Translations under genes and position numbers: made by a program | IMG/VR virus record: IMGVR_UViG_3300042898_006838 | Location: 32,001 to 96,000 of that record | Length of the DNA stretch: 64,000 nucleotides | Source of the DNA: a virus | Strand: one strand, 5' to 3' | Shown here: piece by piece, positions 22,739 through 54,706 of the stretch | How the letters are laid out: the number at the start of each line of letters is the position of its first letter | Position numbering within the stretch: the stretch's first letter is position 1 | The notes under the pieces: generated by a model | Seen by the model: the letters and a program-made list of their open reading frames with translations, nothing else | The model's database searches: none | What the model was told of the DNA's origin: nothing

Positions 22739-23446
22739 ATGAACCCGTTGCTGAAGACACTGCGAACCAAGACGGCGGGGGTCTGGGCTCTTCCGGCCGA
22801 GCGCCGATTCCCCATCGACACAGTTGACCTCGTCAAGACCGCGGCTGTCGCCTTCGAGGGCCAGCTGGAGAACATGGATCCGGCCCAGCGCCTGGTCTGT
22901 GCGCGTCGCGTCTGTGATCGTGCCGCTGAGCTGGGTGTACACGTCGAATCGTCCCTCGCCTACAAGTACGCCAGCGCCAATCTCAGCCCCTTCTTCGCTC
23001 AGTTCCTGGCTCTACGCAAGGAGGCCAGCTGCCACCTTGCTGACCGTGAGTTGGACATGCTGGCCGCCACGGCGGAGAAGCTGTCCTCGATCAAGGACGT
23101 TAACGCTCGCGTCGTCGGCCTCGACAAGGTGGCTGTGGCCCTTGAGAACTTTGACCGCGGTCACGGCCTTGAGGGGCACTGGGACAACTTCTTCCCAGAC
23201 CCGGCGTACAGCGTCTACGGACAGACCTTGGACCGCGGCGAGCGGATGGTCTTGGCCGTGAAGGTTGCCGGCCACGAGATCGACGGACAGATGCTGGAGT
23301 CGGCGGACTGGGAGGGGCTGAGAGGTCGCCTCGATGACTCAGTCATCGACGGCCTGCGTGATGCCGGCGCTGACCAACTCGCGGTCTTCGACAGCCTCCC
23401 GGCTCCGCACAAGGACATCATCGTCCAGGCCCTGGTGTCGGCATGA
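22739..23446 (+). CDS. Hypothetical head-cluster protein with KxA motifs
   Basis: AAGGAG RBS; TKTAG, VKTAA, RKEAS, VKVAG. Confidence 0.7.
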   Translation: MNPLLKTLRTKTAGVWALPAERRFPIDTVDLVKTAAVAFEGQLENMDPAQRLVCARRVCDRAAELGVHVESSLAYKYASANLSPFFAQFLALRKEASCHLADRELDMLAATAEKLSSIKDVNARVVGLDKVAVALENFDRGHGLEGHWDNFFPDPAYSVYGQTLDRGERMVLAVKVAGHEIDGQMLESADWEGLRGRLDDSVIDGLRDAGADQLAVFDSLPAPHKDIIVQALVSA

Positions 23447-24735
23447 GCGTGGTCAACGACGGTCACAAGGACAGCGGCGGCGGGTCAATGGCTGACGCCG
23501 TCTTCGAGGGAATGTGGAAGGGGGCCAGCCGGCCGTCACGAGCCGTCGTTGGCCCGCTTGCGGAGTGGGATGGCCAGGACCCGATCGTGACCAAAACTGC
23601 TCGTGTGCTCAGCGAGAACAGGAGCTTTGAGTCCACAGCCGGCCCCGGTGCCGCCCGCAATGCCAACAGCGGACCAGATCCGTCTGAGAGCTACAGCGCC
23701 ACGGTCGGAGCCACGGCTTCGGAGGCCAAGACTCCGCCGCCAGCGGACCAGAAGAAGCCTGTCGACAGCGGTCCGGCGAAGGGGGTCAAAGGCCCGGCTG
23801 CCTCTGGTCAGATTCAAGACGGCGGCCAGGGGCAGCGAAGCGATGTCTCGTCCAACGTCAAGTCGCGGCTGCAGTCGATGCTTCGCGTCAAGGAGACGGC
23901 ACCAATCCCCCGTGATCTCGTGCCCGCCGGGGCCATGGACAGCGACTACGAAAAGGTCGGATCAGCCCTGCCCGTGGAATGGCTTGAGCAGGCCGGAGAC
24001 GACGTCAGTGAACTGGCTGTCAACGAGCGATTGGCATATGCCGCTGTCCCAGGCGACGGTGGATGGCTGCGTGACGTCGCCGCCGATATCCTGGTCAAGG
24101 AGGCAAGCTCCGACGGCGAGTACCTGGTTCGCGATGACGTCCACCCGCTGAAGATCGTGGCCGTCCTCGACGACCTACTGGGCAGTGAGTGGCGGGAGTG
24201 GGAGCCGGAAACGATCAAGGCCTCACTGGCCAAGGAGGCGGGGACGGAGCCAGGCGACGGGGTTATGGACAAGATCATGGCCGTGAAGCTGGCGCTCTTC
24301 CGCCCCGAACTCTTCTACGGCCGGTGGCAAGCCTTCGAGAAGATGGCTGTGGCTTTCAACGACCGGCGCCCGGAGATGACGGACACCGAGCGGCTGAGTG
24401 CCGATGAGATGGCCAACGCCGTCGCCATCGCCCAGAAGCTGGCTGGCGAGGGGGACTTCACACCCGAGGTCGCCGCCTACGTCGCCACGCACCTCTTCGA
24501 CGAGGGCCTGGTCGTGGCGCCTCCGCAGCTGCTGTTTGCCGACGCCAAACTTGCAACCCTGGTCCGCGACCAGGGCCTGCGCCGCAAGGTCGTCCTGGCC
24601 TACGAGTCGGCGTTGAAGAACATGCCGTCGGACGAGAGCGAGGATCCAATTGAGATTCAGGCTCGCCGCATGGTGCGCACACACCTCTACGTCATGGACC
24701 GATTCGATCAGGGTCGAGAGCAGCTTGGATCATGA
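23443..24735 (+). CDS. Hypothetical head-cluster protein
   Basis: ATGA coupling; disordered N terminus, helical C-terminal domain after VKEAS. Confidence 0.7.
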   Translation: MSVVNDGHKDSGGGSMADAVFEGMWKGASRPSRAVVGPLAEWDGQDPIVTKTARVLSENRSFESTAGPGAARNANSGPDPSESYSATVGATASEAKTPPPADQKKPVDSGPAKGVKGPAASGQIQDGGQGQRSDVSSNVKSRLQSMLRVKETAPIPRDLVPAGAMDSDYEKVGSALPVEWLEQAGDDVSELAVNERLAYAAVPGDGGWLRDVAADILVKEASSDGEYLVRDDVHPLKIVAVLDDLLGSEWREWEPETIKASLAKEAGTEPGDGVMDKIMAVKLALFRPELFYGRWQAFEKMAVAFNDRRPEMTDTERLSADEMANAVAIAQKLAGEGDFTPEVAAYVATHLFDEGLVVAPPQLLFADAKLATLVRDQGLRRKVVLAYESALKNMPSDESEDPIEIQARRMVRTHLYVMDRFDQGREQLGS

Positions 24736-24995
24736 ACAGGTACCCGGCGCGGCAAGAACAGTGTGACCGAGAAGGCTGCCGTCCCGCGAGGCTGAGACCG
24801 GGAGCGACGGTGCGCGTGCAAGGAGTTGTCAACGGAGTCATCGGCCCGTTGGTCGAGGGACGCGTGTTGATCTCCAAGGCCAGCGATCTGGCCCCGGAAG
24901 TTGATGCGGTACTTGTGGCAACAAGAGAGTACGGTCGGCGTTGGTTTCACACCCGAGGCCACCCATTCCGAGTCGTTGAGGAGATCTGCGCATGA
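24732..24995 (+). CDS. Small hypothetical protein
   Basis: ATGA overlaps at both ends. Confidence 0.5.
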   Translation: MNRYPARQEQCDREGCRPARLRPGATVRVQGVVNGVIGPLVEGRVLISKASDLAPEVDAVLVATREYGRRWFHTRGHPFRVVEEICA

Positions 24996-27178
24996 CCAGC
25001 GAGAACGTGGCGCTTGAACGCCATACTTACGACGACCCGTTCCTGGACATGGCCTCGACGAAGCTGCCGAAGAGCTTCAAGAAGCTCATGGAGCTCTGCC
25101 AGATCTTCGCGCTCACGCACCCGCAGATCAGCCCCATCATCCAGCGCCTGGCCGAGTATCCGATCACCAGCCTCGTCTACAAAGGCGACCGTGAGAGTGA
25201 GCGTGTCCACAAGGACATCTTCGAGGTCAAGCTCCGGATCATGGAGAAGATGATCGAGTGGGGCCTGGACTACCACGCCTACGGAAACTGCTTCATCAGC
25301 ATCAGCTTCCCGTTCCTGCGCATGTACCGATGCCAGACCTGCAAGACCATCTACCAGAGCCGTGAGGTCAACTACCAGTACATCGGCGGCCGATTCCAGG
25401 GTCGATGCCGAAGCTGCGGCGGAGACCGAGAGTTCGATGCCATGGACCAGTACGTCAAGGACGCCAGCGGCATCAACCTCTTCCGCTTCGAGCCGCAGCT
25501 GATGACGCCGAAGTTCAACCGTGTCACCGGCCGCTACTTCTACTACTACGACATGCCTCCGGACCTGGTACGCAGCGTCGAGATCGGTGACAAGGACATC
25601 ATCGACAGCACGCCCGTCGAGTACCTGCGGTGCGTGAAGCTCAAGCGCAAGATGAAGCTCAAGCGCGTCTTCCACTTCAAGCGCCCGACACTCAGCGGCC
25701 GCGACATGCAGTGGGGTTTTCCGCTGGTGCTGCCAGCGCTGAAGGATGCCTACCTCAACCAGATCTACAAGAAGGCCGACGAGGCTATTGCCCTCGAACA
25801 CAGCGTGCCCCTGCGCGTGATCTTCCCGCAGCCGCAGACCAAAGACCCAATGCAGATGCTGGCGCTGGGCAACTTCAAGAACTTCATGGCCAAGAACATC
25901 AGGTACTGGCGCCAGGACAAGAACGCGATCATCACCGCGCCCATGCCCATCGGCAGCATGAACATCGGCGGCGACGCCCAGGCCTACAGCACCATCCAGG
26001 CGCGGGTGAAGGTCGTCGACGAGATCATCGGCGCGTGCATGGTCACCCGTGGCTTCGTGCTCGGCGGTGAGAACTGGTCAAGCGCCAGCATCAGCCAGCG
26101 GGTCATGGAGAACAGCTTCATGAACTACCTGCGTCGCATGGACGCCTGTCTGCAGTGGGTTCGTGACGAGGTTGGCGCGTACATGGGCCTGCCGCCGTGC
26201 GCCGTGTCGATGAAGCCATTCAAGAAGGTCGACGACGTGCAGATGCTGCAGCTGATAGTCGGCCTGGCCCAGCAGAAGCGTGTCAGCTGGCAGGAGACGC
26301 TTGGGCGACTGGACCTGGATAGCCGGGACGAGCTCGACGTCATCGAGAAGGAGGCCGTGCGCTACACCGAGCTCATGGTCCAGGAACTCATCGGCCAGAA
26401 CGAGGCCAGCTCCAAGGCTCTCGTGGCCCAGACCGTGGCCCAGGACCAGGCGGCTGGCGTTCAGGAGGTCCTGCAGGCCCAGGCCATGCGAGGTCAGGCC
26501 GTTGGTGCCGATGCCGCTGGGCAGATGAGCAAGGCCCAGTTCGAGGCTCAGCAGGCGGAGGTGGCAGCCAACACGCCGCCAGACCCGGCGTCGGCGGCAG
26601 CATCGGCTGAGGCCGAGAAGGACCAGGCCGTGGCCGAGAACTTCCGCGTCCGCAGTCAGCAGATGAGCGGGCAGCAGCCGGAGCAGCCGCAGGAGCAGAT
26701 GGTGGACGTGAACATGCAGCGTCAGATCCAGATGTGGGCCGGCGAGCTGCTGTCGATGTCCGGCGACGAGAAGCGTAAGCAGCTGCAGTACATGCACGAG
26801 CAGAACCCGGAGATCGCCCAGGCCGTGGTGGAGGTGGCCAGGGAGATGGAGCAGAGCGGTGGCGGTCAGCAGACCGCCGGTCCCGGTCCAGCTATCAGCA
26901 GGAGCCAGGACGCCAAGTCCATGACCGACGCCATCATGTCCCAGGTCAAGAGCCCAGATGAACTCGCTCAGCGCCTGTCCATGATCGATGCCCGGCAACA
27001 GTCAGCCGTGCTCCAGGAGATCCAACGCCGAAACCCTCAGCTCTTCATCAAGGTCATGCAGTTGATGAACGCCGAACGAGCCAAGGGGATGGAGTCCGGA
27101 GCCGGCCGTGGTAACGTGCCAGACAGCAAACCGCTTCCAGAACAGAAACCGCCGCAGCGCGAGGAGTCACCGGTATGA
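24992..27178 (+). CDS. Portal protein (putative) with a CxxC..CxxC insertion and a Gln-rich C-terminal extension
   Basis: DYHAYGNCFI, VFHFKRP, WGFPLV..AL are portal-like motifs; size and context fit. Confidence 0.75.
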   Translation: MTSENVALERHTYDDPFLDMASTKLPKSFKKLMELCQIFALTHPQISPIIQRLAEYPITSLVYKGDRESERVHKDIFEVKLRIMEKMIEWGLDYHAYGNCFISISFPFLRMYRCQTCKTIYQSREVNYQYIGGRFQGRCRSCGGDREFDAMDQYVKDASGINLFRFEPQLMTPKFNRVTGRYFYYYDMPPDLVRSVEIGDKDIIDSTPVEYLRCVKLKRKMKLKRVFHFKRPTLSGRDMQWGFPLVLPALKDAYLNQIYKKADEAIALEHSVPLRVIFPQPQTKDPMQMLALGNFKNFMAKNIRYWRQDKNAIITAPMPIGSMNIGGDAQAYSTIQARVKVVDEIIGACMVTRGFVLGGENWSSASISQRVMENSFMNYLRRMDACLQWVRDEVGAYMGLPPCAVSMKPFKKVDDVQMLQLIVGLAQQKRVSWQETLGRLDLDSRDELDVIEKEAVRYTELMVQELIGQNEASSKALVAQTVAQDQAAGVQEVLQAQAMRGQAVGADAAGQMSKAQFEAQQAEVAANTPPDPASAAASAEAEKDQAVAENFRVRSQQMSGQQPEQPQEQMVDVNMQRQIQMWAGELLSMSGDEKRKQLQYMHEQNPEIAQAVVEVAREMEQSGGGQQTAGPGPAISRSQDAKSMTDAIMSQVKSPDELAQRLSMIDARQQSAVLQEIQRRNPQLFIKVMQLMNAERAKGMESGAGRGNVPDSKPLPEQKPPQREESPV

Positions 27179-28506
27179 GCCAGGAAATTGACGACATGTT
27201 TTCGTCGGATCTCAAGGATCTGGCCAACCCGAGCCGCGTGAAGCTTGCTGAGGCCGAGAAGACAGCGCTCGTCGGCCCGCTGCTGGAACTCGGAAACCTC
27301 GGCATTCCCAGCGGCATCGGCTACGCCGTCGGCGCCAACAAGACGCCGGTAAGCAAGGACGAGGCCCGTCGTCAGCTCGACAGCGGATACAGCGTTGGCA
27401 AAGGTCTCCTCGTACCCGGCTACACCGGCTACCGCGCCGGCAAGAACAGCGCGGCCCGCGAGATGCTGCGCGCGGCCGAGAGCAAGAAGAAGAAGGGCAA
27501 GAAGGAAGCGGCTCTGAGCCCGGAGATGGCCTTCAACGCCGGCCGCGTGAAGGGCGCTCAGGACCCGAGCCGACCAGGCGCCGAGATGCCCGAGAACCTC
27601 AAAGCCGTCGAGCGCATGCGCCCGAACAAGCAGTCGCCGCTGACGGACAAGATCGAAGCCGCGAAGAAGCAGGCGAGCTGGCAGCAGCCTGCTGGACGTC
27701 GTGACACCTTGGGACGAGGAAGCCGAACCGGCGACCTCGGCAAAACCATCGGCAAGCTGATGAAGACGACGAGGAGCAAGGAGGCTTCGGCCGACGATCT
27801 CTTTGCCGCCGAGCTCTGCCAGGCCGTGGGCCTGGACGTGCCTGAGGCCTACGTCGACTTCCAGCGCCCGCAGGTCAAGATCGCGGGCAGTGCCAGCGAT
27901 GCCATCGACAACCACTTCCGCGGCTGGATGGAGAAGAAGGCCGGCGAGGATGTGGTCAAGGTCGCCAGCGATGACGAGGACAAGGACGAAGAGTCCGAGT
28001 GCTCCATGGACCACAGCAAGCTCAAGACCGGCACCAAGTGCAAGAAGTGCGGCGAGATGTGCAAGGAATCCTCGGTCAAGGAGGCCTTGAGCAGAGGGTT
28101 TATTGAAGCCATGCTCAAAGGCAAGAAAATCGTCGGCAAGGGAGGACGAACAGCTTCCCAGCGCCTGATGCGTGCCTCCGACAGAGGTCAAAGCGCCTTC
28201 AGCCGCAGAGTCGGCGCCGACGCCCCCAAGCGAATGACGAATTCAGCCCTTGAGCTGCAAAGTCAGGCTGACGGACAGCTCAACAACATCGGACGCGACA
28301 TCGCCGCCGGCACGTCGAAGACCTCCAGCGTCAAGACGGCGATGTGTGGCGCCGAACACAAGAAGCTCAAGCCCGGCGCCAAGTGCGAGAAGTGCGGCGA
28401 GATGGCGAAAACCGCCGGCATCATCGAGCACGACGAGAACCTGGACCTGCTGGCCAAGATCAGGGCCCGGGCCGCGCAGGGCCTGGGGCTGAACGGCGAT
28501 GGCTGA
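27175..28506 (+). CDS. KxA-punctuated putative internal-head polyprotein with two zinc-knuckle repeats
   Basis: EKTA, KKEAA, KKQAS, SKEAS, VKIAG, EKKAG, VKVAS, VKEA, VKTA, AKTAG; C-x3-H-x8-C-x2-C twice. Confidence 0.7.
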   Translation: MSQEIDDMFSSDLKDLANPSRVKLAEAEKTALVGPLLELGNLGIPSGIGYAVGANKTPVSKDEARRQLDSGYSVGKGLLVPGYTGYRAGKNSAAREMLRAAESKKKKGKKEAALSPEMAFNAGRVKGAQDPSRPGAEMPENLKAVERMRPNKQSPLTDKIEAAKKQASWQQPAGRRDTLGRGSRTGDLGKTIGKLMKTTRSKEASADDLFAAELCQAVGLDVPEAYVDFQRPQVKIAGSASDAIDNHFRGWMEKKAGEDVVKVASDDEDKDEESECSMDHSKLKTGTKCKKCGEMCKESSVKEALSRGFIEAMLKGKKIVGKGGRTASQRLMRASDRGQSAFSRRVGADAPKRMTNSALELQSQADGQLNNIGRDIAAGTSKTSSVKTAMCGAEHKKLKPGAKCEKCGEMAKTAGIIEHDENLDLLAKIRARAAQGLGLNGDG

Positions 28507-28711: not shown

Positions 28712-28719
28712 CCTCGGCT

Positions 28720-29653: not shown

Positions 29654-29736
29654 GACTGACTCCTTGACAGGCCCTGGGGTGTTAACCCTGGGCGGTGGAT
29701 GAGAGTGAGAACAGACCACCTGTTTCTCTCTCACCT

Positions 29737-35845: not shown

Positions 35846-36233
35846 CTTCACACCAACTCGCATCAAAGACCAGGACATCAACGGCGTGTACACGCCAAGC
35901 GGGCCTGCGCAGACCATGCGGAAACGCATGCTAGGTGACGACGGGGCGTCGGTGACGGGGAAGAGCGAATGGGTGCGCATGACACCGAGCTCGAAGAGCT
36001 TCTTCCTCTACAACGTCAGCCGCACGGGCGCCGTCGGAGCCGCCGTCGTGCAGATCCACGGCGCCATGGAGCTCGCTGACGTTCCTGAGAATACGGCCTT
36101 CCAGCTCCTGGCCACTCTCAACGCCGCCGCCCCACACGCCAACGTCACCTCGCCATGGAGCTACATGCGCGCCGAGGTCACCGTCGCCGGCGCCTCGGCT
36201 GTGCAGGTGGGCATGGACACAGAGAACCCATGA
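35838..36233 (+). CDS. Hypothetical beta-rich virion protein
   Basis: AGGAGG RBS, GTG start; coupled to both neighbours. Confidence 0.65.
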   Translation: MADFTPTRIKDQDINGVYTPSGPAQTMRKRMLGDDGASVTGKSEWVRMTPSSKSFFLYNVSRTGAVGAAVVQIHGAMELADVPENTAFQLLATLNAAAPHANVTSPWSYMRAEVTVAGASAVQVGMDTENP

Positions 36234-36715
36234 ACAACCATGGCGTCAGAGACGGCATGGTCAAGGTGGCCATGCGAGCCGACGTCGAGGAGCAGGTGCT
36301 CACGGCGCTGACCACTCTCTTGCCCCGCGGTGTCGACCCGGGTCACGACGACGAACTCGACGACCTGCTCCCGGACGTCGGAGATCTTGAGGCCCTGGTC
36401 ATGGCCGTGGAGGAGAGTTTCGACGTCGACTTCACCGACGCCGAGGCCTTTGATCTCTTCGCCTTCGGCACCGTCGGTGACCTGATCGAGGCCGTGACCA
36501 AGCACCTGATGTCGAAGACCGCCGGCTATGACCGCGCCTACTACATCCAGAACCGTGAGCGTCTGAAGACCAAGAGCCGCACGTACCGCATGCGCAATCT
36601 CCACAGCGTCAGACGCAAGGCAAAGGCCTATCGACGCAAGGTCAAACGGCGTATGATCAGGCCGCGGAAACGCGTGGGCAGCGCCGGAAGCGGATATCAC
36701 TTTATCGCGAGGTAG
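36230..36715 (+). CDS. Acyl-carrier-protein-like domain lacking the phosphopantetheine Ser, fused to an Arg/Lys-rich tail
   Basis: DLLPDVGDLEALVMAVEESFDVDFTDAEA....TVGDLIEAV aligns with the ACP pattern DLGADSLD..ELVMALEEEFD.EI.DE.A....TV. Confidence 0.75.
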   Translation: MNNHGVRDGMVKVAMRADVEEQVLTALTTLLPRGVDPGHDDELDDLLPDVGDLEALVMAVEESFDVDFTDAEAFDLFAFGTVGDLIEAVTKHLMSKTAGYDRAYYIQNRERLKTKSRTYRMRNLHSVRRKAKAYRRKVKRRMIRPRKRVGSAGSGYHFIAR

Positions 36716-36718: not shown

Positions 36719-37123
36719 GTGGACAAGTTGGCATTCGAAATCGGCGTCGCTGACGGCATCGAGAAGACGGCGATCTCAAATGACGTGGCCATGAGGGCCT
36801 TGGCTCGTCGTATTGATCAAGCTCGTCTTGCCGGAGGCAACGCTGATTTCATGACAAAAGGCCGAAAAGCGGTGCGGATGATAAATCGGACCCGCTCCTG
36901 GAAGGAAGGCAAGAACCAACGCGTGTATCTGCACAAGCGTACCGGAGCCGGCATGGAACAGCTCATGCGTCGCGCTCAGGAAGTCAAGAAGTCGCCTGTC
37001 GCCGACAAGGTCGTTGGCAGCAGCAAGAAGAAGAACATCGCCATGGGCCTGGGAGCCGCAGCCGGCGTCGGGGCCATGGGAGCCGGGGCCTACGGCCTCA
37101 ACCGCGCGCTGAAGGACGACTGA
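36719..37123 (+). CDS. Basic protein with an AFEIG..EKTA leader and a C-terminal Gly/Ala hydrophobic helix
   Basis: MDKLAFEIGVADGIEKTA...MGLGAAAGVGAMGAGAYGL. Confidence 0.7.
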   Translation: MDKLAFEIGVADGIEKTAISNDVAMRALARRIDQARLAGGNADFMTKGRKAVRMINRTRSWKEGKNQRVYLHKRTGAGMEQLMRRAQEVKKSPVADKVVGSSKKKNIAMGLGAAAGVGAMGAGAYGLNRALKDD

Positions 37124-40808: not shown

Positions 40809-41147
40809 TCATCCAAAGGCTTGTGCGACCGGGGCGACGGTCGACATGACCTTGCCTAGTCTCTGCTTCAACGGACTGCCGCTGGCTACCCCGCCCTTGG
40901 CCAGAGCTCTGCCACCAGTGCCCATGAGGCTTGATACGCCGCCGGCCACGGCTCCGGAGAAGCCTCCGACGCTGCCGCTTTGAGCCGCTGCCACCGCCGG
41001 CGCGATGTGACGGTTGATGAGCGGTTGAGCGCGCGTCAACACGTTCTTGGCCCCGGAGATCATGGGGGCGAATGACATCGCCTCCTTGTCCTCCATCGCC
41101 ACCTTCATCATCCCGGCCCGGGCCCCGGCTTCAAACGCGCTATTCAT
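40809..41147 (-). CDS. Small basic Gly-rich protein with an AFEAG..KVA leader
   Basis: AAGGAG RBS; MNSAFEAGARAGMMKVA-MEDKEA-. Confidence 0.7.
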   Translation of the reverse strand: MNSAFEAGARAGMMKVAMEDKEAMSFAPMISGAKNVLTRAQPLINRHIAPAVAAAQSGSVGGFSGAVAGGVSSLMGTGGRALAKGGVASGSPLKQRLGKVMSTVAPVAQAFG

Positions 41148-42002: not shown

Positions 42003-44525
42003 CTAAGCCGTCGCCGCCTGCTCTGCTCGATGGTCGAGAGCCGACTTGAGCACTCGCAGACGGTTGACGGTTTTTGACAGTCCCTCAAGAGCCTGGCGGA
42101 CAGGCTCTTCGGGAACGTGAGGCATGCCCAGGCGCACGGCCACGAGCATGGCCGCGACGCGGCTGGCGGTCTCGTCGAAGTCTTCGATGCTGTCCACGAA
42201 GTACTTCAGGTTCTGAGGTGTGATGAACTCCAGGCTCAACACCGCGTCCAACGTCTCCGGGACACTCGACGCCGCCGCGGCCTTGAACAGGGCCTCGCTG
42301 GGGCGGCAGGCGGCCGCGAAGTTGACTGTTGCCTGATCGTATTCTGGATCGGGGATGACGATGACCTCGAAGCCCTGACGCTGCGGCTCGTGAAGCCCGG
42401 CGATCTTGACACCGCGATCCAGGCCCTGACGGCGCTTGGCCTCGTCGAGAGCCCAGGCCGCCCCATCTCCGTCCATGCCCATGGCCACGAGCAGCTCGCG
42501 GGCATCCCACTCGCTCAGGTCCTGCCAGCTCGCGTTCTTGTTCTGTCCACCAAGCATCGACCCCGCCACGGCGCCGGCCGCCATGGGAGCGGCGATCATC
42601 GCCGCGCCAGGTGCGTAGTGCTTGGCCACGCGAGCCGCGCCGCCGAAGCCACCGCCGGCCGCGTTGTAGAGCTTCTTGGCGCCACGGCCGATCTGCCCAG
42701 GGTTCGTGGCCAGGGTCTTCACCTGGTTGAAGCCCGTGCGAGCCAGGCCGCCGAGGAACGCGGACTTCACCGTCCACAGCGCACCGTCGCTGGTGACGTG
42801 CGTCGACGATCGGTCGCTGCTCAGCTTCGTCAGCTGGTCGCTGGCCTCCGCTACCTCCAGCTTCGACGTCAACGGCACCCACTCCACGTCGCCAGGCGCG
42901 TAGTACACCACGCCATCGGACAGGGCCGAGATCTCGTTGTTGACCGTCGTCATCTGCTGGAAGCCCTGGACACCGGCAACGGGCACAAGTGTCACACTCT
43001 GTCCGCTCACCGAGTCACGGACGATGAACAGGGTATGGATGTGCCCGCCGCTGTCCGTCACCAGCCTGACGCCGGAGATGGTCATGGGCGTGGTGGGGAT
43101 GGGTGTGCCGTGGACGTAGCTGACGAACACGCCGTGTTGACCGGTCTTCGGTGGGCGGCTGGGCAGGCGAGGGCTCGTGGATACGCGGGTGCCGAAGAGT
43201 TCGGTGGCCACGGAGTACCTGCCGTCGAGAGCCACAAAGAGCTTCTTGGGCACGACCTGTCCGTCGATGGTCACCATCTGCCGGCAAACGTAGCCGGCGA
43301 CGGTGTCTCCGCGTCGCGTGTAGATCATGTGCGCGCCGTCGCTGGCGACTGGCAGGGCCCCGGATCCGCTATCAGGATCCCATGACGCGCGCTCGACGCC
43401 GTCGCTCTCCACGTACACGTCGCCGCTGCGGAGCTTGCGCATGACCTCTGGGTAGCGGTCGCCGAGGATGGACCTGAGCTCGTCGTCAGTTACGCGCTGC
43501 GACGGCCCGCCGCTGAACTTGATGTTGATGCCGCTTGGCGCCTCGAAGATCTGGACGATGTTCGGCTTGCGCACGGCCACGGACGAGCGTGTCTCCGGCT
43601 GCACGCGCGTGACCATGTCGATGACGGCCAGGTTGTTACCCGTGCCCTTGAGCAGGGCCGGGTTCGTGGCCAGCATCTTTCTGACGCTGGCCAGGTCATT
43701 GGGGTCGAAGGATCCGGTCTTCAACAGCCGAGCGGTGAAGCCGTTGTCGACGTCGTAGCTGCTCTTCTTGTAGAGAACGTCCTTGGTCTTGCCTACGAGA
43801 GCGCCGACAGTCGCGCCTTCGGCGGCTCCGATCAGTGCGCCCTTGCCGACGGCGGCAATGGTCTTGGCTCGGCTGCGACGAGGGTCGGCGGCTCGGGCGC
43901 CGGTCTCCTTCTCGACGGCCTGAGAGACGCGAGTAGGCGTTCGGAAGGCGGCCCCGACGATGGCGCTCTTGCCCGTGTCCGGAAGAGCCCTGAGCCTGGA
44001 CACCAGGCTGCTCTTCAGGCTCGAAGTCTTGGTCCCGTCATAGGGGCCGGCGAAGGGGCTGGCCTGGCCGCTGTACTCCAGGGGCGTGGCATCGCCGGTG
44101 ACGTCGCCGACGTACGGGTTGCCGCCGATGGCGCGGCTGGCGCCACCGCCTTCGGCCTCGCCAACGGCCGGGCTGTGGGTCACGGAGCGCACGGTCTCCG
44201 GGTCCAAGTACCGGTATCGTCCCTTGTGGAAGAACACGTCCAGGGGCGCGAGCTCCGGATCTGCTCCCGGCCGCGGCCGGGAGATGACCACGGGCACCGC
44301 CATCTCGCCCTCCAGGATCACGGAGCCGACAGCCGCTCCCTTGCTGGCGTCGAGGCGTCGAAGATCGATCTCAGCCGTCTCCAGAGGCAGGTACGGGTGC
44401 TGACTCTTAAGGTAGCGAATGATCTCCGACTGCCAGAGCTTGGGGTTGGCTGGGAGCTTGTATCCGGCGACCTTCTCGAAGGACTCGGGCTCAAAGTACA
44501 GTGGCTGTCTGGACATGGTCGTCAC
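42003..44525 (-). CDS. Large head-cluster protein with KxA/KxS-flanked basic inserts
   Basis: GAGG RBS; EKVAG, TKTSS, YKKSS, TKLSS, VKSA, NKNAS, VKIAG, FKAAA. Confidence 0.75.
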   Translation of the reverse strand: MTTMSRQPLYFEPESFEKVAGYKLPANPKLWQSEIIRYLKSQHPYLPLETAEIDLRRLDASKGAAVGSVILEGEMAVPVVISRPRPGADPELAPLDVFFHKGRYRYLDPETVRSVTHSPAVGEAEGGGASRAIGGNPYVGDVTGDATPLEYSGQASPFAGPYDGTKTSSLKSSLVSRLRALPDTGKSAIVGAAFRTPTRVSQAVEKETGARAADPRRSRAKTIAAVGKGALIGAAEGATVGALVGKTKDVLYKKSSYDVDNGFTARLLKTGSFDPNDLASVRKMLATNPALLKGTGNNLAVIDMVTRVQPETRSSVAVRKPNIVQIFEAPSGINIKFSGGPSQRVTDDELRSILGDRYPEVMRKLRSGDVYVESDGVERASWDPDSGSGALPVASDGAHMIYTRRGDTVAGYVCRQMVTIDGQVVPKKLFVALDGRYSVATELFGTRVSTSPRLPSRPPKTGQHGVFVSYVHGTPIPTTPMTISGVRLVTDSGGHIHTLFIVRDSVSGQSVTLVPVAGVQGFQQMTTVNNEISALSDGVVYYAPGDVEWVPLTSKLEVAEASDQLTKLSSDRSSTHVTSDGALWTVKSAFLGGLARTGFNQVKTLATNPGQIGRGAKKLYNAAGGGFGGAARVAKHYAPGAAMIAAPMAAGAVAGSMLGGQNKNASWQDLSEWDARELLVAMGMDGDGAAWALDEAKRRQGLDRGVKIAGLHEPQRQGFEVIVIPDPEYDQATVNFAAACRPSEALFKAAAASSVPETLDAVLSLEFITPQNLKYFVDSIEDFDETASRVAAMLVAVRLGMPHVPEEPVRQALEGLSKTVNRLRVLKSALDHRAEQAATA

Positions 44526-46364: not shown

Positions 46365-46409
46365 CTTGCTCCTTGCCCGTCCGCAAAACCAGCTGGTACG
46401 CTGCGCACC

Positions 46410-47342
46410 ATGCCCACCAATGTCTCCGGCTACAACAAGTTCGAGCTCGAATCCTTCGCCAAGCGCGCTGCTGATTCCTACCTCCGTGACGGGCGGGACA
46501 TGGACGACAGTATCACGTCTCTTGCGCGTGAGAACGGCTTCACTGGGCACCACGTGGATCGCGTGGCCCAAGCCGCCAACACCTTCGTCAACGGTGAGCT
46601 GGTCAAGCAGGCTCGGGCAGAGAAGCGAGACCTGAGGGTCACATTCAAGCTGGCCAGTGGCGAGGCTGTGAAAAAGCGCTTGTCCGGTAACGACGTCAGC
46701 GAGACACGGAAGGCCGCATCACTTCAAGACTCTTTCCGTGTCGAGAAGCGCGCCGTGGACAGGGGAGCTGTTCTCGACGGCGTCATCGGCAAGACGGCGC
46801 GCGACCCGATGGCAGCTCTCCCGCGCTCCGTCGACGGCCATGAGCTTGCTGCCACCTACGTGAAGAACGCGCAGGTCGCCAAGTCAGTGGCCGGCAGCGT
46901 CACCAGTGCCACTCTCGCCTGTGCCTGTCAGGACCTGGAGTCGATGAAGGAACAAGCCACCGGAGACATGTGGCGTGCAAAGCAGGCGGCTGAGAACGTG
47001 GAGTACGAGATCCGTGACCAGGTTCACGACCTCCTCCTCGATCATCACACACCAGCCACCCTCCGCTCCGTCATCGCCAACGGCGTAAAAGACGCCAAGC
47101 TCGCGGCCTACGTCGACGGCCTGGTGACAAAGGTCGCCGCCGAGCTGGAGGTTCGCGAAGGCAGGAGCCTTGTCACAGGACTCATGGTCGTCAACGACGA
47201 TCACCCGCTGCTGACCAAGGTCGCCGAGATCAGCTCCAAACTCGATCGCTGCCGGCAGGTCAATACCGGCCTCACGGCCTTCACGGCCGCGGCCGACGCC
47301 GCTCGCCTCGACTTCACACGCGCTGCTCGCGAGGGACGATGA
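46410..47342 (+). CDS. Head-cluster hypothetical protein with many KxA motifs
   Basis: ATG 7 nt after TACGCT with no RBS (possibly leaderless); AKRAA, FKLAS, RKAAS, GKTA, TKVAA. Confidence 0.7.
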   Translation: MPTNVSGYNKFELESFAKRAADSYLRDGRDMDDSITSLARENGFTGHHVDRVAQAANTFVNGELVKQARAEKRDLRVTFKLASGEAVKKRLSGNDVSETRKAASLQDSFRVEKRAVDRGAVLDGVIGKTARDPMAALPRSVDGHELAATYVKNAQVAKSVAGSVTSATLACACQDLESMKEQATGDMWRAKQAAENVEYEIRDQVHDLLLDHHTPATLRSVIANGVKDAKLAAYVDGLVTKVAAELEVREGRSLVTGLMVVNDDHPLLTKVAEISSKLDRCRQVNTGLTAFTAAADAARLDFTRAAREGR

Positions 47343-47939: not shown

Positions 47940-49418
47940 ATGTGGAAAGTCATCGTCAACGAACCTGAGACCAAGTTTGGCCCGAGCTGGACATGGTTGG
48001 ACATGTCCAGCCGTCACTCCCTGCACAAGGTCGCCAGCACCGGCGTATTCGTGCCACCTGAACTGCAGGCAAAGATCGCTGAGATCCAGGGGCAGCTGCC
48101 GGGTGACAAGGTCGCGTTCTACAATCGGGCCCTGGGATCCTACGAGGCCTTCGGTCTGAACAGGAACGGCGACGGATTCGAGGCTGACTGGCTGCGAAGG
48201 AACCACGACACCTTCGTCAAGAACGGCCACTACTTCAAGCACCACCAGAACAAGGACCCGGCCCTGGGGCGAGGCCGTCCCGTCGCAAGCGCCTACAACG
48301 AGAAGACGGCGATGGTGGATCTGATCATCGTCGCCGACAGGGACAAGTGCGAGGAGCAGATCCAGGCCCTTGAACGTGGTCAGCGCGTGCCTACGTCGAT
48401 GGGAGCCAAGGTCGCCTTCGACGTCTGCACCATCTGCGAGAACCGGGCTCCGAACCGCGACTCGTACTGCGAGCACGTGAAGACCGCGGCCCTGGAGCCC
48501 TACGGCATGTCCCGCGTTCTCAGCGATGGCCGTGTCTGTGGCGTGTTGAATCCGAACCCAGGTTTCTTTGACATCAGCGACGTCATCGTCGGAGCCGCGG
48601 CCGAGAGCGAGACGCTGATGAAGGTCGCCGGCTACGGGAAGCTGTCGGGAGCAGACCTGGCCGTACTCACCGGCCTGTCGAAGATCGGCGACGAGAAGGG
48701 CGCAGCGATGTCCAAGCGCCTGCCCGGCGAGATCGACGCCGCCTACCACCCGCTGTCGTCGCGAGCAGAAGACTTCAGCAGCCGTGAGGTCGACATCCCG
48801 GATGCGGACATCGACCGCGTTCGCGAGCGCTCTGGCTTCGAAGGTGTGTTGCGGAACAGTGCGGCCCTGGGCATCGTGCTCAAGCCCAGCGAGTTCGCAA
48901 GAGCCGCGAAACTGAGCTCTTTCTCTGCGCCAACCCTGAAAGAGATTTTGCGCAGTGAATCTGCCCCAAAAAAGATTCTGACGGCGGCACTCGACGACGG
49001 CTCGCTTCAGATCCTGTCTCGCTTCTACGACCAACGCAGCAGCCAGCAGCCGGCCCTCATGAACAGGATCTCAAGCCCTGGTCAAAAAATCGCCTCACGT
49101 CTGGAAGGCGAAAACGCTGATGCCAAGCGCATGTACTGCGCGTACCGCCGATCTCTTCTTGACGTCGACAGCGAAGATACTCGCTGGTCCATGAAGTGTG
49201 CGGGAACGAGCGACCGGTACCGGACAGAAACAAGCCGCGCCTACACGCTTCACGTCTTCACCGAGCCTGAGATCAGGGAGAAAGTCCTTGACCGGATCAC
49301 GAAGGTTGCCGGACAATCACGCGGCACTGGATTCGGTCCCGTCAGCGGATCGATGGCAGATGAACTCGGTGTTGAAGTACTTGAACTTCTTGCGGTACAG
49401 TCTATCCAGACTTTTTGA
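47940..49418 (+). CDS. Prohead maturation protease (putative) with a zinc-binding insertion
   Basis: NRNGDGF, HH, TSMG (candidate catalytic Ser), CTIC..CEH, FFDIS; upstream of the scaffold and capsid genes. Confidence 0.75.
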   Translation: MWKVIVNEPETKFGPSWTWLDMSSRHSLHKVASTGVFVPPELQAKIAEIQGQLPGDKVAFYNRALGSYEAFGLNRNGDGFEADWLRRNHDTFVKNGHYFKHHQNKDPALGRGRPVASAYNEKTAMVDLIIVADRDKCEEQIQALERGQRVPTSMGAKVAFDVCTICENRAPNRDSYCEHVKTAALEPYGMSRVLSDGRVCGVLNPNPGFFDISDVIVGAAAESETLMKVAGYGKLSGADLAVLTGLSKIGDEKGAAMSKRLPGEIDAAYHPLSSRAEDFSSREVDIPDADIDRVRERSGFEGVLRNSAALGIVLKPSEFARAAKLSSFSAPTLKEILRSESAPKKILTAALDDGSLQILSRFYDQRSSQQPALMNRISSPGQKIASRLEGENADAKRMYCAYRRSLLDVDSEDTRWSMKCAGTSDRYRTETSRAYTLHVFTEPEIREKVLDRITKVAGQSRGTGFGPVSGSMADELGVEVLELLAVQSIQTF

Positions 49419-50240: not shown

Positions 50241-50241
50241 A

Positions 50242-50604
50242 ATGAAGGCCACAGACTTCGCCAAACTTGGTCGTGAGCTCGTCGCAAGCCGTAAGGAATG
50301 TGACGCTCTCAAGGTCAAACTTGCTGGTCTGGAAAAGCGGGCGGCGGCGGAGGTCTTCCTCACGTCGCTCCTGCAGGACCCCACGGCTCCCATGCACCTC
50401 CGTCCTTCGGGCGTGGAGGACTTCCTCTCCAAGAGGGACCAGGTCGAGAAACTTGACCTGGAGACCGCAAAGCTCGCCGCTCAAATGGCAAGCCGCGGAG
50501 GATTCGAGATCGGGGAACCTGAGGACGCAAGCCCCAGGTACTCCTCGTCCAGCAGCAAGGCCGACGACCAATTCGTCGACTGGCTGTCCGGTTTTGGCCA
50601 GTGA
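50242..50604 (+). CDS. Small coiled-coil scaffold-like protein
   Basis: MKATDFAK...EKRAA; between the scaffold and decoration genes. Confidence 0.6.
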   Translation: MKATDFAKLGRELVASRKECDALKVKLAGLEKRAAAEVFLTSLLQDPTAPMHLRPSGVEDFLSKRDQVEKLDLETAKLAAQMASRGGFEIGEPEDASPRYSSSSSKADDQFVDWLSGFGQ

Positions 50605-50628
50605 ACATTTGAGCGGAGGAATACCCCC

Positions 50629-51054: not shown

Positions 51055-51096
51055 GCTTGGTCACAATTCCCCGCCCAGGGATCTGAAGGAGAAGTC

Positions 51097-52005
51097 ATGT
51101 CCGAGTTCGGAAGCAACCTGAATCGAATCTTCGTGGAAAACATCCGCGACCCGGCCATGCGAAAGGAGGCAGAAGAGCGCTCTCAGGCCTACCTGAAGCT
51201 GCGTGTCTACGAGGACAGCTTCCTGTCCCGTATCCTTCCGCCGAAGCCCATCAGCCCAAGCCAGTGCGATCGTACTCTCGAATCTCCGACGATGCTCCGC
51301 AAGATCATCGACAAGGAGTACACGGACGTGACCGCGACGGTCATGGATTTCCGTGGCAAGGGCAACTACAAGTTCATCGAGACTGCCCAGTATGCGGTCG
51401 ACTTCCACAAGATCGAGTCGGAAGAGTACCACATCACCGAACAGGAGCTCCGAGCCAAGGAGCAACCGGTCCAGTCCCTGATCAAGCACCACACGGCGCG
51501 CCAGATCCAGGAGGTCATGGACCGGACCTTCATCAACGCCATCGAGGCCATCCTCGCCGCGAACCCGACCCAGGCGATCACCGACAGCAGCGACATCATC
51601 CTGCCGTCGAACATCACCAAGCTGCGCAACGTCCTCGACGGCCGCTCGACCTTCCCTCAGGTCGCTGCCACGCTGCTGATGTCGAGCGCTCAGTTCAACA
51701 ACATGGCTGTCTGGCCTCAGGCCGGCGTCGACAACGGCATGGGCCAGGAGTACTGGGCCGACGGCTACAAGTACGACAAGCTCTACGGTCTGCGCGTCGT
51801 CAAGACGATCAAGTCGAACCTCGTGCCCAACAACAAGGTCTACGCCTTCGTGGCTCCCGAGTTCCTCGGCCACCACCTGACGTTCAACGACGACCGGTTC
51901 CAGATCAAGACCGAGTGGGACGACATCGCCTGGAAGGCGTGGAAGACCCACGGCGCCGCCATCGGCAACAACTTCGGCGTCGCCAGCTTGACCCTCGGCG
52001 TCTGA
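51097..52005 (+). CDS. Major capsid protein (HK97 fold, putative)
   Basis: AAGGAG RBS, strong codon bias, 302 aa; FLSRILPP, IQEVMDRTFI, VPNNKVYAF; followed by a terminator. Confidence 0.8.
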   Translation: MSEFGSNLNRIFVENIRDPAMRKEAEERSQAYLKLRVYEDSFLSRILPPKPISPSQCDRTLESPTMLRKIIDKEYTDVTATVMDFRGKGNYKFIETAQYAVDFHKIESEEYHITEQELRAKEQPVQSLIKHHTARQIQEVMDRTFINAIEAILAANPTQAITDSSDIILPSNITKLRNVLDGRSTFPQVAATLLMSSAQFNNMAVWPQAGVDNGMGQEYWADGYKYDKLYGLRVVKTIKSNLVPNNKVYAFVAPEFLGHHLTFNDDRFQIKTEWDDIAWKAWKTHGAAIGNNFGVASLTLGV

Positions 52006-52035
52006 GCCGCGAGCTGAAAAATGAAAGCACCGGTG

Positions 52036-52076
52036 ACGGGGCGATCCGGGTAAACTGGACCGCCCCGTTCCCTTTT
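52036..52076 (+). terminator. Probable terminator after the capsid gene
   Basis: ACGGGGCG...CGCCCCGT stem followed by TCCCTTTT. Confidence 0.55.
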
Positions 52077-52095
52077 CACAAGCAGGAGTAGAGAC

Positions 52096-52500: not shown

Positions 52501-52503
52501 TCC

Positions 52504-52968: not shown

Positions 52969-52974
52969 GGGGTC

Positions 52975-53772
52975 ATGCGCTTCTACGACACCCGAGTCCT
53001 GGCTATGCCCCGTGAGGGCCTGCATGTGCAGTGGCAGTTGGAGCCCGAGGACACGGACATGTCCAGCGTCGAGGTGGAGTTGCAGCGCAGCGAGAGTCCG
53101 CTCGGGCCCTTCGAGGTCCTGCAGGCCTTCGACCCGGTGTCGGTCTTCGCGTTCACGGACAAGACCGTGCCCTGGCGACCGAAGGGCTGGGAGATCTACT
53201 ACCGCCTGGTGGCCAGGAATAAGACCAGCGGCGACGTCGTGCACGAGGGACGAGCCTTTGGAATGCAGGGACAGCTGCCTCTCGACGCCCTGGAGATCAT
53301 CAGGCAGCACAACATCATGCTCCGTGGCGTCAATGGCCACGGCGCGTACAACGGCACACTCTGCACCGTCTACAAGCGCAGGAACTTCGGAGCTCGCTGC
53401 GTGTTCTGCGTCGACGCCCAGACCGGTCGCGTGACCATCAGCGGCTGCCGGAGCTGCGGCGGCACCGGCTTCTCGGGCACCGGCTACTACGCGCCCGTGG
53501 ACGTGTTCATCGCCCTGCAACCCAACGCCAGGAACCCGCAGATCACGATGCTGGGCAAGCTTGAGGACAACGAGACCAGCGGCTACCTCGTCAACTTCCC
53601 AGTGCTCTACGGCGGAGATCTGATCGTGGAGCCCAGCGAGGTCCACTGGCGGGTTGTTGCCGTGGAGCCTACGCTGCGCCATCGTGTCATCGTCAGACAG
53701 TCACTGCGCCTTCGACAGCTAGACCACAACGACGTAGAGTACGAGACTCTTCGTCACAGCAGCCACAGATGA
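52975..53772 (+). CDS. Neck / head-closure protein (putative) with a CxxC..CxxCxGxG zinc finger
   Basis: RCVFC...GCRSCGGTGF; GDLIVE..WRV stopper-like C terminus. Confidence 0.6.
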   Translation: MRFYDTRVLAMPREGLHVQWQLEPEDTDMSSVEVELQRSESPLGPFEVLQAFDPVSVFAFTDKTVPWRPKGWEIYYRLVARNKTSGDVVHEGRAFGMQGQLPLDALEIIRQHNIMLRGVNGHGAYNGTLCTVYKRRNFGARCVFCVDAQTGRVTISGCRSCGGTGFSGTGYYAPVDVFIALQPNARNPQITMLGKLEDNETSGYLVNFPVLYGGDLIVEPSEVHWRVVAVEPTLRHRVIVRQSLRLRQLDHNDVEYETLRHSSHR

Positions 53773-54098
53773 GGAACGTCATGGAAAAGACCGCCTTTGA
53801 AATCGGATTCGAAGAAGCTTTGAAGATCGCGTCCAGCGGCCAGCCCATGGTCGACTCGTCTCCGGCTCCCTACCTCAACACCAGCGGCGGCGCGAAGGCC
53901 GGTACTCAGGGTCCGCACAACGGCGTCGTGGCCCCGGCTCCGGGATCCAGCTACTACTCTCCGCCGGCAGCAGCCGGTGGCCACTTGAACACAAACTCCT
54001 CGCCATCGACCGGTGAGAAGGGCAAGAGCGAGACGGGGACACTGGCCATGTGCAAGGACGCCGCCCTCGCCATCGCGTCCAGGAACCGGAGCCGCTGA
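53769..54098 (+). CDS. Small disordered protein with an EKTA-FEIG..KIAS leader
   Basis: MEKTAFEIGFEEALKIAS. Confidence 0.65.
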   Translation: MRNVMEKTAFEIGFEEALKIASSGQPMVDSSPAPYLNTSGGAKAGTQGPHNGVVAPAPGSSYYSPPAAAGGHLNTNSSPSTGEKGKSETGTLAMCKDAALAIASRNRSR

Positions 54099-54706
54099 TG
54101 TCAGTGAGAGACGACGTACTCGCCAAGAGTCGAGAACATATGGAAAAGGAGGCGAATGTCTTCGCCAACGCCTTGAACCGTGCGGGATCACTCGTCGGGC
54201 GAGGCGTCGCCTCTGTCGCTGGCAAGGGTGGTCAGCTTCTCTCCAACCCCAGCTCTCGCCTCGGCCAGCTTGCTGACCGAGTCAGCACGTCAGCTGCCGG
54301 GCAGGGGGCTGCCAGCCGCGCGGCTCTGGCGAAGAGAGTCGAAGATCGAGCTCAAACCGCGGCTCAGAGCCGGGTGATGAAGAAGATGACGCCGGCCGAG
54401 CGCGTCAGCGTCCGGCAAGACCAGTCGGCGTCGCGGGCAGCGGCCAAGGCCAAGGCCAACGCGCCGATGCCGCAGTCCGCTGCTCCTGTCGGCGTGTCCC
54501 AGGCACCGGCTCAAGCCCAGGCCGCCGGTGGTCAGGTTGTTCCCATCCGTCCGGGCATGGGCTTGGGCAAGAAGGTCATGATCGGTGGCGGGCTTCTGGC
54601 TGGCGGCTCGATGATTGGCGGTGCCGTCGGCGCCGGCAAGCAGAGCGTTCAGCAGCAGATGGCCAGCGGCCAGATCGTGCCCGGAAACTACGAACAGCAG
54701 GGATGA
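54098..54706 (+). CDS. Basic Ala/Gly-rich protein with an EKEA leader and a C-terminal glycine-zipper-like helix
   Basis: TGATG coupling; IGGGLLAGGSMIGGAVGAG. Confidence 0.7.
   Translation: MSVRDDVLAKSREHMEKEANVFANALNRAGSLVGRGVASVAGKGGQLLSNPSSRLGQLADRVSTSAAGQGAASRAALAKRVEDRAQTAAQSRVMKKMTPAERVSVRQDQSASRAAAKAKANAPMPQSAAPVGVSQAPAQAQAAGGQVVPIRPGMGLGKKVMIGGGLLAGGSMIGGAVGAGKQSVQQQMASGQIVPGNYEQQG

Follow-up and report, generated by a model that had tools for sequence, protein, structure and literature searches.

The 64,000-nt stretch examined here (the window; positions 32001-96000 of the 155,932-bp genome in IMG/VR record IMGVR_UViG_3300042898_006838, 62.8% G+C) is the structural half of an uncultured phage of the myovirus type, and carries tail and baseplate genes, a head-gene cluster and the sheath and tube genes (Table 1). 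This report concerns a short motif, Lys-x-Ala (K.A or K-x-A in the following), that recurs in the proteins of the head-gene cluster, and its probable reader, the candidate prohead protease encoded at 47940-49418. Positions refer to the whole window, residue numbers to the individual protein, and proteins are named after the first position of their gene. Besides the terminase, the capsid protein and a few others listed in Table 1, family matches are absent for most of the head proteins. The nearest cultured phages, all of them distant, are Salmonella phage Arash and the Vibrio phages D69, D181 and D148, whose capsid proteins are 22-25% identical to that of this phage and whose proteases are 35-36% identical over about half of its length. 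A preliminary description had proposed that the protease has K-x-A specificity, with K-x-S as a variant, and that the head cargo is built as modular polyproteins punctuated by such sites.

The examples of the motif given in that description were all found in the genes named, and their number exceeds chance. In 29 head-cluster proteins (10,165 aa), with expectations taken from per-protein shuffles, K.A occurs 99 times versus 65.2±7.5 expected (z 4.5), K.A followed by Ala, Gly or Ser (K.A[AGS]) 51 times versus 18.2±4.0 (z 8.1), and the narrower class K[TVIE]A[GS], picked with the data already in view, 21 times versus 2.3±1.5 (z 12). Among the least credible explanations is that this excess is a functionless by-product of composition, helical repeats or paralogy, since Ala and Lys abound in the head proteins, some of which are also of low complexity, and three of the small ones are paralogous at their N-termini. 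Against it, K.A[AGS] retains a z of 7.7 when shuffling is confined to blocks of 15 residues, so that local composition is not the explanation; the reversed motif [AGS]A.K and the arginine form R.A[AGS] are flat in the head cluster (z ~0); and the tail proteins, likewise Ala/Lys-rich, show no excess in a control of 14 proteins (8,227 aa), with K.A[AGS] found 12 times versus 7.4 expected and K[TVIE]A[GS] 0 times versus 1.1. In the tail protein encoded at 14290-15897, where the motif had been put down to chance, K-x-A is found 6 times versus 5.3 expected, and K[TVIE]A[GS] turns up three times in the remaining genome (~38,000 aa), so the excess is confined to the head cluster. The greater conservation of the sites than of other Lys and Ala residues amid variable flanks, and the recurrence of the same code in Arash at 53% G+C, both described below, also speak against a by-product.

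An unbiased scan of the head cluster arrives at the same motif: KTA is the top tripeptide (17 versus 2.96 expected, p 1.8e-8), KVA and KEA are within the top 12, EKTA and KTAG are the top tetrapeptides, and K.A ranks 4th among 1,508 gapped pairs, the top pairs including none of the x-x-E type. The motif counts are 54/21 in the coding frame versus 2-9/0-2 in the five other frames, and synonymous codons vary at the sites; as the signal is restricted to the coding frame and the codons vary, it is a feature of the protein level, and a DNA-level motif is ruled out by this control. The sites are also placed unevenly, since 16 of 30 head proteins have a K.A within their first 35 residues versus 6.1±2.1 in shuffles, compared with 18 of 145 (12%) elsewhere in the genome. 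Taken singly, the 22739, 23443, 27175, 42003, 46410, 47940 and 50242 products are enriched at p<0.01 and the 49440 and 53769 products at p<0.05. Two elements of the earlier proposal fell away: K-x-S shows no excess in the head cluster (~42 seen versus ~43 expected), and the abrupt composition flips described at the sites do not stand out, the absolute charge difference across a site being 2.02 versus a baseline of 1.83 over all positions (p 0.22).

The 47940 product is laid out, in a model from AlphaFold2 (AF2), as a disordered N-terminal leader (residues 1-32), a protease domain (~33-230), a linker and a C-terminal helical domain (270-448), with a folded domain at 36-231 and a mean predicted local distance difference test (pLDDT) score of 67.7. 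Residues 49-231 of the model superimpose on the T4 prohead protease gp21 (5jbl_A; VIA-align Z 9.2, root-mean-square deviation 3.1, 130 residues) and on herpesvirus proteases (Z 6-8.8; varicella-zoster virus 1vzv, Z 8.8; pseudorabies virus 4v07, Z 8.7), and the top 34 VIA-align matches are gp21 or herpesvirus assemblins without exception; Foldseek alone gave no match at E<=0.001 (best 1.4e-2). By analogy with these enzymes, H102, S153 and H179 are the candidate catalytic residues: none of the three varies among 24 homologues with identities as low as 38%, their spacing is 51 and 26 residues, and S153 sits in a PTSMG stretch. The catalytic residues of the human cytomegalovirus protease are H63, S132 and H157. 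The protease domain also has an inserted Cys/His cluster (C163, C166, C177 and H179, all invariant; 48426-48476), which may bind zinc, in which case the two roles of H179, as ligand and as third catalytic candidate, have to be distinguished. Searches with curated models returned no Pfam family at E<=0.01 (S21, S77, S78 and S80 included) and no NCBIfam family for the 47940 product, and a search of PDB sequences with the protease profile gave chance matches only; among phage protein families, the protein matches only phrog_18299, "head maturation protease" (E 6.5e-4), and phrog_2774 (5.8e-13). The gene order of protease, putative scaffold, small proteins and HK97-fold capsid protein is the same in all relatives.

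Positional evidence comes from the protease itself, which carries six conserved K-x-A sites (Table 1), all inside or bordering segments of pLDDT<50 (1-35, 232-269, 382-387, 418-425 and 449-492); the non-conserved K122, K157 and K181 lie within the confidently folded domain, and K122-T-A, inside the fold and not conserved, was rejected as a site. One conserved site would release an N-terminal propeptide and another, K228-V-A230, borders the protease domain on its C-terminal side, directly before a hypervariable linker of low pLDDT (232-269). The end of the protease domain is where related enzymes free themselves from C-terminal extensions (PMC5694885). At E<=1e-3 the family to which this protease belongs has 3,739 cluster representatives, of which 2,668 pass E<=1e-10. 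The FFDIS strand is followed by a K-x-A in all 111 closer homologues tested and, among 111 diverse representatives of the clusters, in 105 (~95%), where the distance peaks sharply at +19, the consensus is [LM]-x-K-[VIT]-A-S and the background window rate is 0.29; the same arrangement is found in gp19 of Bacillus phage G and in the protease of a Myrna-like mycobacteriophage (Myrnavirus). In some lineages the protease gene appears to contain inteins, as suggested by homologues of 850-900 aa with intein/LAGLIDADG domains or by a profile match in two separated stretches (P0100, P0127 and P0128); the terminase of one relative (L002, 1-1398) also has an intein (PF14890, PF14528).

That a host protease rather than the phage enzyme reads K-x-A is very improbable. 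The link between the 47940 product and cleavage is an indirect one, drawn from sequence, which leaves some room for this explanation, but the motif travels with the protease family across phages of Proteobacteria, Firmicutes (phage G) and Actinobacteria (Myrnavirus), and is limited to the products of genes that surround the protease gene.

The conservation to which the preliminary description had looked for support is present in homologue alignments, where many sites are kept in register, despite variable flanks, in six to eight relatives with proteases 37-70% identical. The upstream head proteins follow the same pattern, apart from the few exceptions given below. From 137 metagenomic protease homologues, flanking DNA was taken for six (37-67% identical) and upstream loci for four more phages; a scan of viral contigs with the protease as sole query gave no match. 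The motif returns in the same orthologous proteins of the six relatives, and it is absent there from the terminase, the capsid body, the tail genes and the orthologues of 44562, 45555, 50629, 52504 and 52975. Lys residues within K.A are better conserved than other Lys residues of the same proteins (0.59 versus 0.43, p 6e-4), and the same holds for Ala (0.59 versus 0.41, p 2e-4). In the head proteins of Arash (53% G+C), K.A is the top gapped pair (55 versus 29.3 expected), and sites stand at matching places in the protease, the capsid protein and the scaffold-like gp223; the Arash protease gp222 has TKQAA at the place of the K30 site, and its major capsid protein has VKEAG at residue 27.

Table 1. 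Genes and candidate K-x-A sites of the window, and the second leader cluster outside it (kept n/m, found in n of m relatives; HMM, hidden Markov model; iE, independent E-value; regex, regular expression)
Feature	Position	Strand	Evidence and remarks
Prohead protease, 492 aa	47940..49418	+	AF2 model, fold match, invariant residues
Protease site K30-V-A32/S33, N-terminal propeptide	48027..48038	+	K30, A32 invariant (24 homologues); kept 6/6; pLDDT<50 segment 1-35
Protease site K228-V-A230/G231, C-terminal edge of protease domain, candidate autocleavage	48621..48632	+	K228, V229, A230 invariant; kept 6/6
Protease site K253-G-A255, linker	48696..48707	+	kept 5/6; K248 (alignment A1 numbering) nearly invariant; pLDDT<50
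Protease site K383-I-A385/S386	49086..49097	+	kept 3/6 in register, mostly kept in alignment A1; low-pLDDT loop 382-387
Protease site K419-C-A421/G422	49194..49205	+	K419, A421 invariant; kept 6/6, flank identity 0.22; low-pLDDT loop 418-425
Protease site K455-V-A457/G458	49302..49313	+	kept 4/6, flank identity 0.19; low-pLDDT tail 449-492
Putative scaffold, 266 aa	49440..50240	+	between protease and capsid genes; sites K23, K41, K104, K126, K161
120-aa protein	50242..50604	+	sites K26, K32, K77; orthologues in all relatives
Major capsid protein, HK97-fold	51097..52005	+	phrog_2522; NF042927 from residue 77
Capsid site K23-E-A25/E26	51163..51174	+	kept 6/6
134-aa small protein	36719..37123	+	leader ending K16-T-A (36764-36775); leader HMM iE 6.5e-9 (training member), regex match
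112-aa small protein	40809..41147	-	leader ending K15-V-A (41094-41105); regex + HMM (training member)
109-aa small protein	53769..54098	+	leader ending K19-I-A/S (53823-53834), second site K96; both kept 3/3
Second leader cluster, outside the window	genome ~144000-153500	-	leader starts (genome) 144991, 145921, 146903, 149627, 152931, 153419; degenerate copy 151613
SNF2-type helicase	39315..40796	-	phrog_62 match from residue 19
Helicase site K19-T-A-A22	40731..40742	-	kept 3/3
840-aa head protein	42003..44525	-	K.A[AGS] 5 vs 1.3 expected, p 0.009
42003 site K18	44463..44474	-	kept 5/6
42003 site K663	42528..42539	-	
42003 site K707	42396..42407	-	
42003 site K748	42273..42284	-	kept 6/6
310-aa site-dense protein	46410..47342	+	K.A 12 vs 2.9 expected, p<0.001; K18 kept 4/6
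199-aa protein with Gly-zipper segment	47339..47938	+	site K56-K-A/S59 (47504-47515), kept 5/6, flank identity 0.19
443-aa fast-evolving modular protein	27175..28506	+	12 K.A; K.A[AGS] 7 vs 1.8 expected, p 0.001
27175 site K412-T-A-G	28408..28419	+	K412, A414, G415 invariant
235-aa site-dense protein	22739..23446	+	6 K.A vs 1.3 expected, p<0.001
430-aa protein	23443..24735	+	K.A 8 vs 2.9 expected, p 0.003
23443 site K219-E-A-S	24097..24108	+	K-[ET]-A-[SG] in 3/3 relatives
161-aa protein	36230..36715	+	phrog_5934 acyl carrier protein, E 2.8e-4 (weak)
Fused beta-beta' RNA polymerase, single chain, 2019 aa	29786..35845	+	presumed virion cargo
Terminase	37194-38852		PF05876 in orthologues
Tail and baseplate genes	3-20189	-	
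Head-gene cluster	22739-54706		
Sheath gene, long	55590-58754		tube gene next

A second line of evidence is a 17-residue N-terminal leader common to the 36719, 40809 and 53769 products, which are unrelated beyond it. The leader opens with [A/S]-F-[E/D/Q]-x-G and, after a short spacer, closes with [I/M/L]-x-K-[T/V/I/L]-A, and the conserved block stops at the Ala. Across the genome, an HMM and a regex of the leader match at N-termini only, in 3-4 genes of the window and in 6-7 genes of a second cluster outside it, where two open reading frames (ORFs) outside the training set were matched at iE 1.8e-4 and 0.022. In all, no fewer than 10 small proteins that are otherwise unrelated begin with the leader; it is found in relatives too, where the L004 orthologue of 36230 carries a full leader (HMM 1.3e-4), and no match was obtained in the fetched Arash locus. 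The pattern resembles the capsid-targeting sequence (CTS) of T4, and by this analogy the leader-bearing proteins would be packaged; those of the second cluster, which lies at a distance from the head genes, are probably loaded into the capsid as well. Many of the leader-bearing proteins end in Gly/Ala-rich hydrophobic segments. Segments of this kind, resembling glycine zippers and often near the C-terminus beside basic residues, are seen in many head-cluster proteins, namely the 36719, 40809 and 47339 products, the C-terminus of the 49440 product, the product of 54098-54706 and residues ~620-660 of the 42003 product; proteins with such segments could serve as ejection proteins that act on membranes or as core proteins that self-associate.

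The leader also bears on where the chain would be cut. That the motif is a protease signal of which another bond is cut, after the Lys (P1 Lys) or one residue downstream, is quite unlikely: sequence does not fix the bond, and Lys is as conserved as Ala, but the leader block ends at the Ala and diverges from the next residue on, this next residue is biased toward Ser, Gly and Ala as a P1' residue would be, and P3-x-P1 is the pattern recognised by those enzymes of this fold that have been characterised. Judging by these sequence patterns, a cut behind the Ala is the most likely, with Lys at P3, Ala at P1 and a small residue at P1', and the main reason for this placement is that the conserved leader block ends at the Ala.

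A subsite logo built from 506 sites of seven phages extends the motif on both sides, with Met (3.7x) and Leu (2.1x) favoured at P5, Glu (2.6x) at P4, Thr/Val at P2 and Ser (2.6x) at P1', and with Pro depleted from P5 to P2'. The extended form, [M/L/F]-[E/V/T]-K-[T/V/I]-A followed by Ser, Gly or Ala, is the pattern to be expected if an extended substrate groove reads these positions. These preferences, with Pro excluded, resemble those of a protease, and they count against the suggestion, which we consider unlikely, that K-x-A serves for docking or targeting, being bound and left uncut, for instance on an amphipathic helix tethering core or cargo to scaffold, portal or the inner wall of the capsid. 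The placing of the AF[ED]xG...K-x-A leader at N-termini, like a targeting peptide, would fit such a role, as would the modelling of some conserved sites in helices or strands (42003 K748, protease K228), but most conserved sites fall in low-confidence, presumably flexible loops with no recurring structural element, and the motif stands precisely where the protease domain ends in ~95% of the members tested of a family of thousands, and also at module boundaries.

Other head proteins carry sites as well. The putative scaffold has an acidic N-terminal half and a basic Gly-zipper C-terminus, and contains K.A[AGS] 4 times versus 1.1 expected; its AEKTAS and FEKVA sites, at K23 and K41, are each kept in 5 of 6 relatives and TKIAA (K161) in 6 of 6, with K161, I162 and A163 invariant in alignment A5. 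The 120-aa protein that follows has K.A[AGS] 3 times versus 0.4 expected (p 0.001), and its K26 is kept in all five orthologues compared. The capsid protein has a single N-terminal site. In the SNF2-type helicase, the site lies right before the helicase homology. The sites K18, K663 and K707 of the 840-aa protein border low-confidence segments of its AF2 model (1-19, 566-669 and 700-729), and K62 and K748 are in better-modelled parts. Of three relatives, two or three retain the sites of the 235-aa 22739 product at residues 33, 76, 94, 130 and 175; its N-terminal TKTAG is not kept in relatives and was rejected as a site. The 23443 site K219-E-A-S is found in a hypervariable stretch whose flanks are unalignable. 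The 310-aa 46410 product is probably a scaffold or core component. It is the 3' part of a plus-strand ORF (45915-47342) that is genuine only from 46410, as the first 165 codons are the antisense of a minus-strand gene (45555-46364, start 46364).

Whether the head cargo is a set of modular polyproteins, as had been proposed, is answered differently by different proteins. In homologues of the 27175 product, whole modules are lost or replaced, with ends that coincide with K-x-A, and the last site, K412-T-A-G, precedes a conserved C-terminal stretch of 30 aa; two other sites of this protein are not kept in relatives. The orthologues of 46410 and 47339 are fused in the two most distant relatives into proteins of 512-532 aa (L003, 8406-10004; L006, 8411-9949), and the K56 site of 47339 is retained in the matching junction region of the fusions. 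The 36230 product has three parts, a degenerate leader ending in K12-V-A, a domain weakly like an acyl carrier protein and, after K96-T-A-G, an Arg/Lys-rich tail, and both sites are kept in the L008 orthologue; the tail resembles a DNA-condensing peptide. On the other side stand the RNA polymerase and the helicase, which are not polyproteins. The RNA polymerase, the largest presumed cargo, is depleted in the motif, with K.A found 4 times versus 11.4±3.1 expected (P 0.008) and A.K, R.A, K.G and K.S near expectation, and the L008 orthologue has 5 versus 11.6. It holds one good match, GDKIAGRYGNKG, in what we take to be a conserved RpoB motif of bacteria; as K765-I-A-G sits in this stretch and the polymerase is depleted in K-x-A overall, it was rejected as a site. 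A 281-aa minus-strand gene (28889-29734) interrupts the plus-strand head operon and is free of K.A[AGS]; its product has no blastp match in the upstream loci of relatives, yet L008 has a 291-aa gene at the same position and on the same strand.

Packaging of the polymerase and the helicase is plausible in this lineage because in Arash virions, analyzed by mass spectrometry, the RNA polymerase subunits are the most abundant matches and the DNA helicase gp217 is also abundant (PMC10585845). As a packaged enzyme, the polymerase may avoid the motif. The site-dense proteins (22739, 46410, scaffold and 50242) look more like a degraded scaffold or core than like cargo. The make-up of 27175, 46410/47339 and 36230 gives the polyprotein idea partial support; as a whole, by analogy with T4 and phiKZ, a degraded scaffold or core of several proteins together with removable N-terminal leaders appears a better description than polyprotein cargo.

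We conclude, with a probability of roughly 0.74, that the phage's own protease, of the gp21/assemblin fold, recognises K-x-A, a motif by which the enzyme would process itself, clear the scaffold or core and remove leaders. The proposed K-x-A specificity of the 47940 protease remains the best reading, with indirect support from the motif, the modelled fold and the six conserved sites of the enzyme itself. We infer that the sites are cleaved, which bond is scissile and that the leader-bearing proteins are packaged. On this reading, the cutting would take place inside the assembled prohead. The protease would cut off its own N-terminal peptide of 32 residues, free its domain of ~200 residues at K228-V-A230 and fragment its C-terminal domain. 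The site-dense scaffold and core (22739, 46410, 49440, 50242 and most of 27175) would be broken up by it, and the small fragments would leave the shell. From head proteins that are retained it would trim leaders, cutting at A25 in the capsid protein, at about A21 in the SNF2 helicase and at A20 in the 840-aa protein, and it would do the same to the small proteins with the 17-residue leader.

Several points weigh against this conclusion. The scissile bond is not readable from sequence. The AF2 models are of modest confidence, with a mean pLDDT of 67.7 for the 47940 product and 56.8 for the 840-aa protein. The invariance of K228-V-A230 could be structural, because it is modelled within the last beta-strand of the protease domain, and, on the models, 42003 K62 and K748, the sites of the 22739 product and K57 and K157 of the protease domain, being in better-modelled or conserved parts, may likewise be structural instead of cut. 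The K[TVIE]A[GS] class was chosen post hoc, and the recurrence of the motif in relatives is not statistically independent because they are homologues. The K.A depletion of the RNA polymerase was likewise noticed post hoc, and it does not recur in Arash, whose RNA polymerase gp206 shows none. The mass spectrometry of Arash virions consists of coverage percentages from a preparation with many non-structural proteins, and its supplement holds gene sequences only (PMC10585845).

The mechanism proposed is of a known kind. The proteases of T4, phiKZ and SPN3US recognize a P3-x-P1 motif, cleave themselves C-terminally and remove N-terminal propeptides, with T4 reading (L/I)-x-E and phiKZ and SPN3US (A/S/G)-x-E, and the SPN3US enzyme prefers Val at P4 and Ser at P1' (PMC5694885, PMC10052503). 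The likeness to T4 gp21 lies in the same fold, a motif of the P3-x-P1 type, a site-dense scaffold or core and an N-terminal propeptide of the capsid protein, whereas here P1 would be Ala instead of Glu and P3 Lys instead of Leu/Ile, sequence similarity is undetectable, and the protease has a 260-residue C-terminal domain and the Cys/His cluster. As with the T4 CTS, small proteins start with one short common leader that closes with the protease motif; the leader here has 17 residues and an unrelated sequence. With the phiKZ/SPN3US type, this phage would share the cutting of many head proteins, C-terminal autocleavage, propeptides with several sites, a packaged virion RNA polymerase and the P4 and P1' (Ser) preferences, all predicted here, and it differs in the motif, in having the RNA polymerase as one fused beta-beta' chain and in its smaller genome of 156 kb.

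Herpesvirus assemblins (MEROPS S21) have release and maturation sites of the form (V/L/I)-x-A/S, cut between A and S. The assemblins resemble the phage enzyme in their fold, in a similar His-Ser-His spacing and in the joining of a protease domain and a further domain in one chain with a conserved site at the junction; they would resemble it also, if the cut falls after the Ala, in having Ala at P1 with Ser favoured at P1'. They differ from it in that here P3 would be Lys, with a hydrophobic preference (Met/Leu/Phe) at P5, the scaffold has a gene of its own, the virus is a bacteriophage and the sequences are not similar. The K-x-A excess is shared by Arash, with sites at matching positions, and Arash is different in its split RNA polymerase subunits and its lower G+C content; the motif goes unmentioned in its paper (PMC10585845; OQ632216). 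No description of a prohead protease with Lys-x-Ala specificity was found in the literature searched, outside of which most subscription journals lie, and the specificity, the family and the leader are accordingly undescribed in that literature.

A wider scenario, for and against which the odds seem to us even, is that an uncurated protease family of at least 2,600 clusters (at 50% identity), in phages of Proteobacteria, Firmicutes and Actinobacteria, makes a herpesvirus-like cut after Ala by way of P3 Lys and a hydrophobic P5, and that in the present lineage the code has become a means of loading cargo, in which the leader brings at least 10 small glycine-zipper proteins into the capsid, N-terminal peptides are trimmed from the helicase and other enzymes, and the RNA polymerase has been purged of K-x-A so as to survive.

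Capsid-maturation proteases are known in detail for a few phages (T4, phiKZ/SPN3US and HK97) and for herpesviruses. If the K-x-A specificity is as concluded, the phage enzymes would be linked to the Ala/Ser preference of the herpesvirus assemblins, and the leader would be a second example, with a different chemistry, of the cleavable capsid-targeting leader of T4; a leader of this kind could serve to bring foreign proteins into capsids. Protease specificity has a bearing on host immunity too, as sensors of the cyclic oligonucleotide-based antiphage signalling system (CBASS) are triggered when a prohead protease cleaves an exposed loop (PMC12991175). For the family as a whole, mature protein ends, scaffold or core proteins and packaged cargo would become predictable from the genomes of a wide group of phages that includes Arash, Vibrio phage D69, phage G and the Myrna-like mycobacteriophages.

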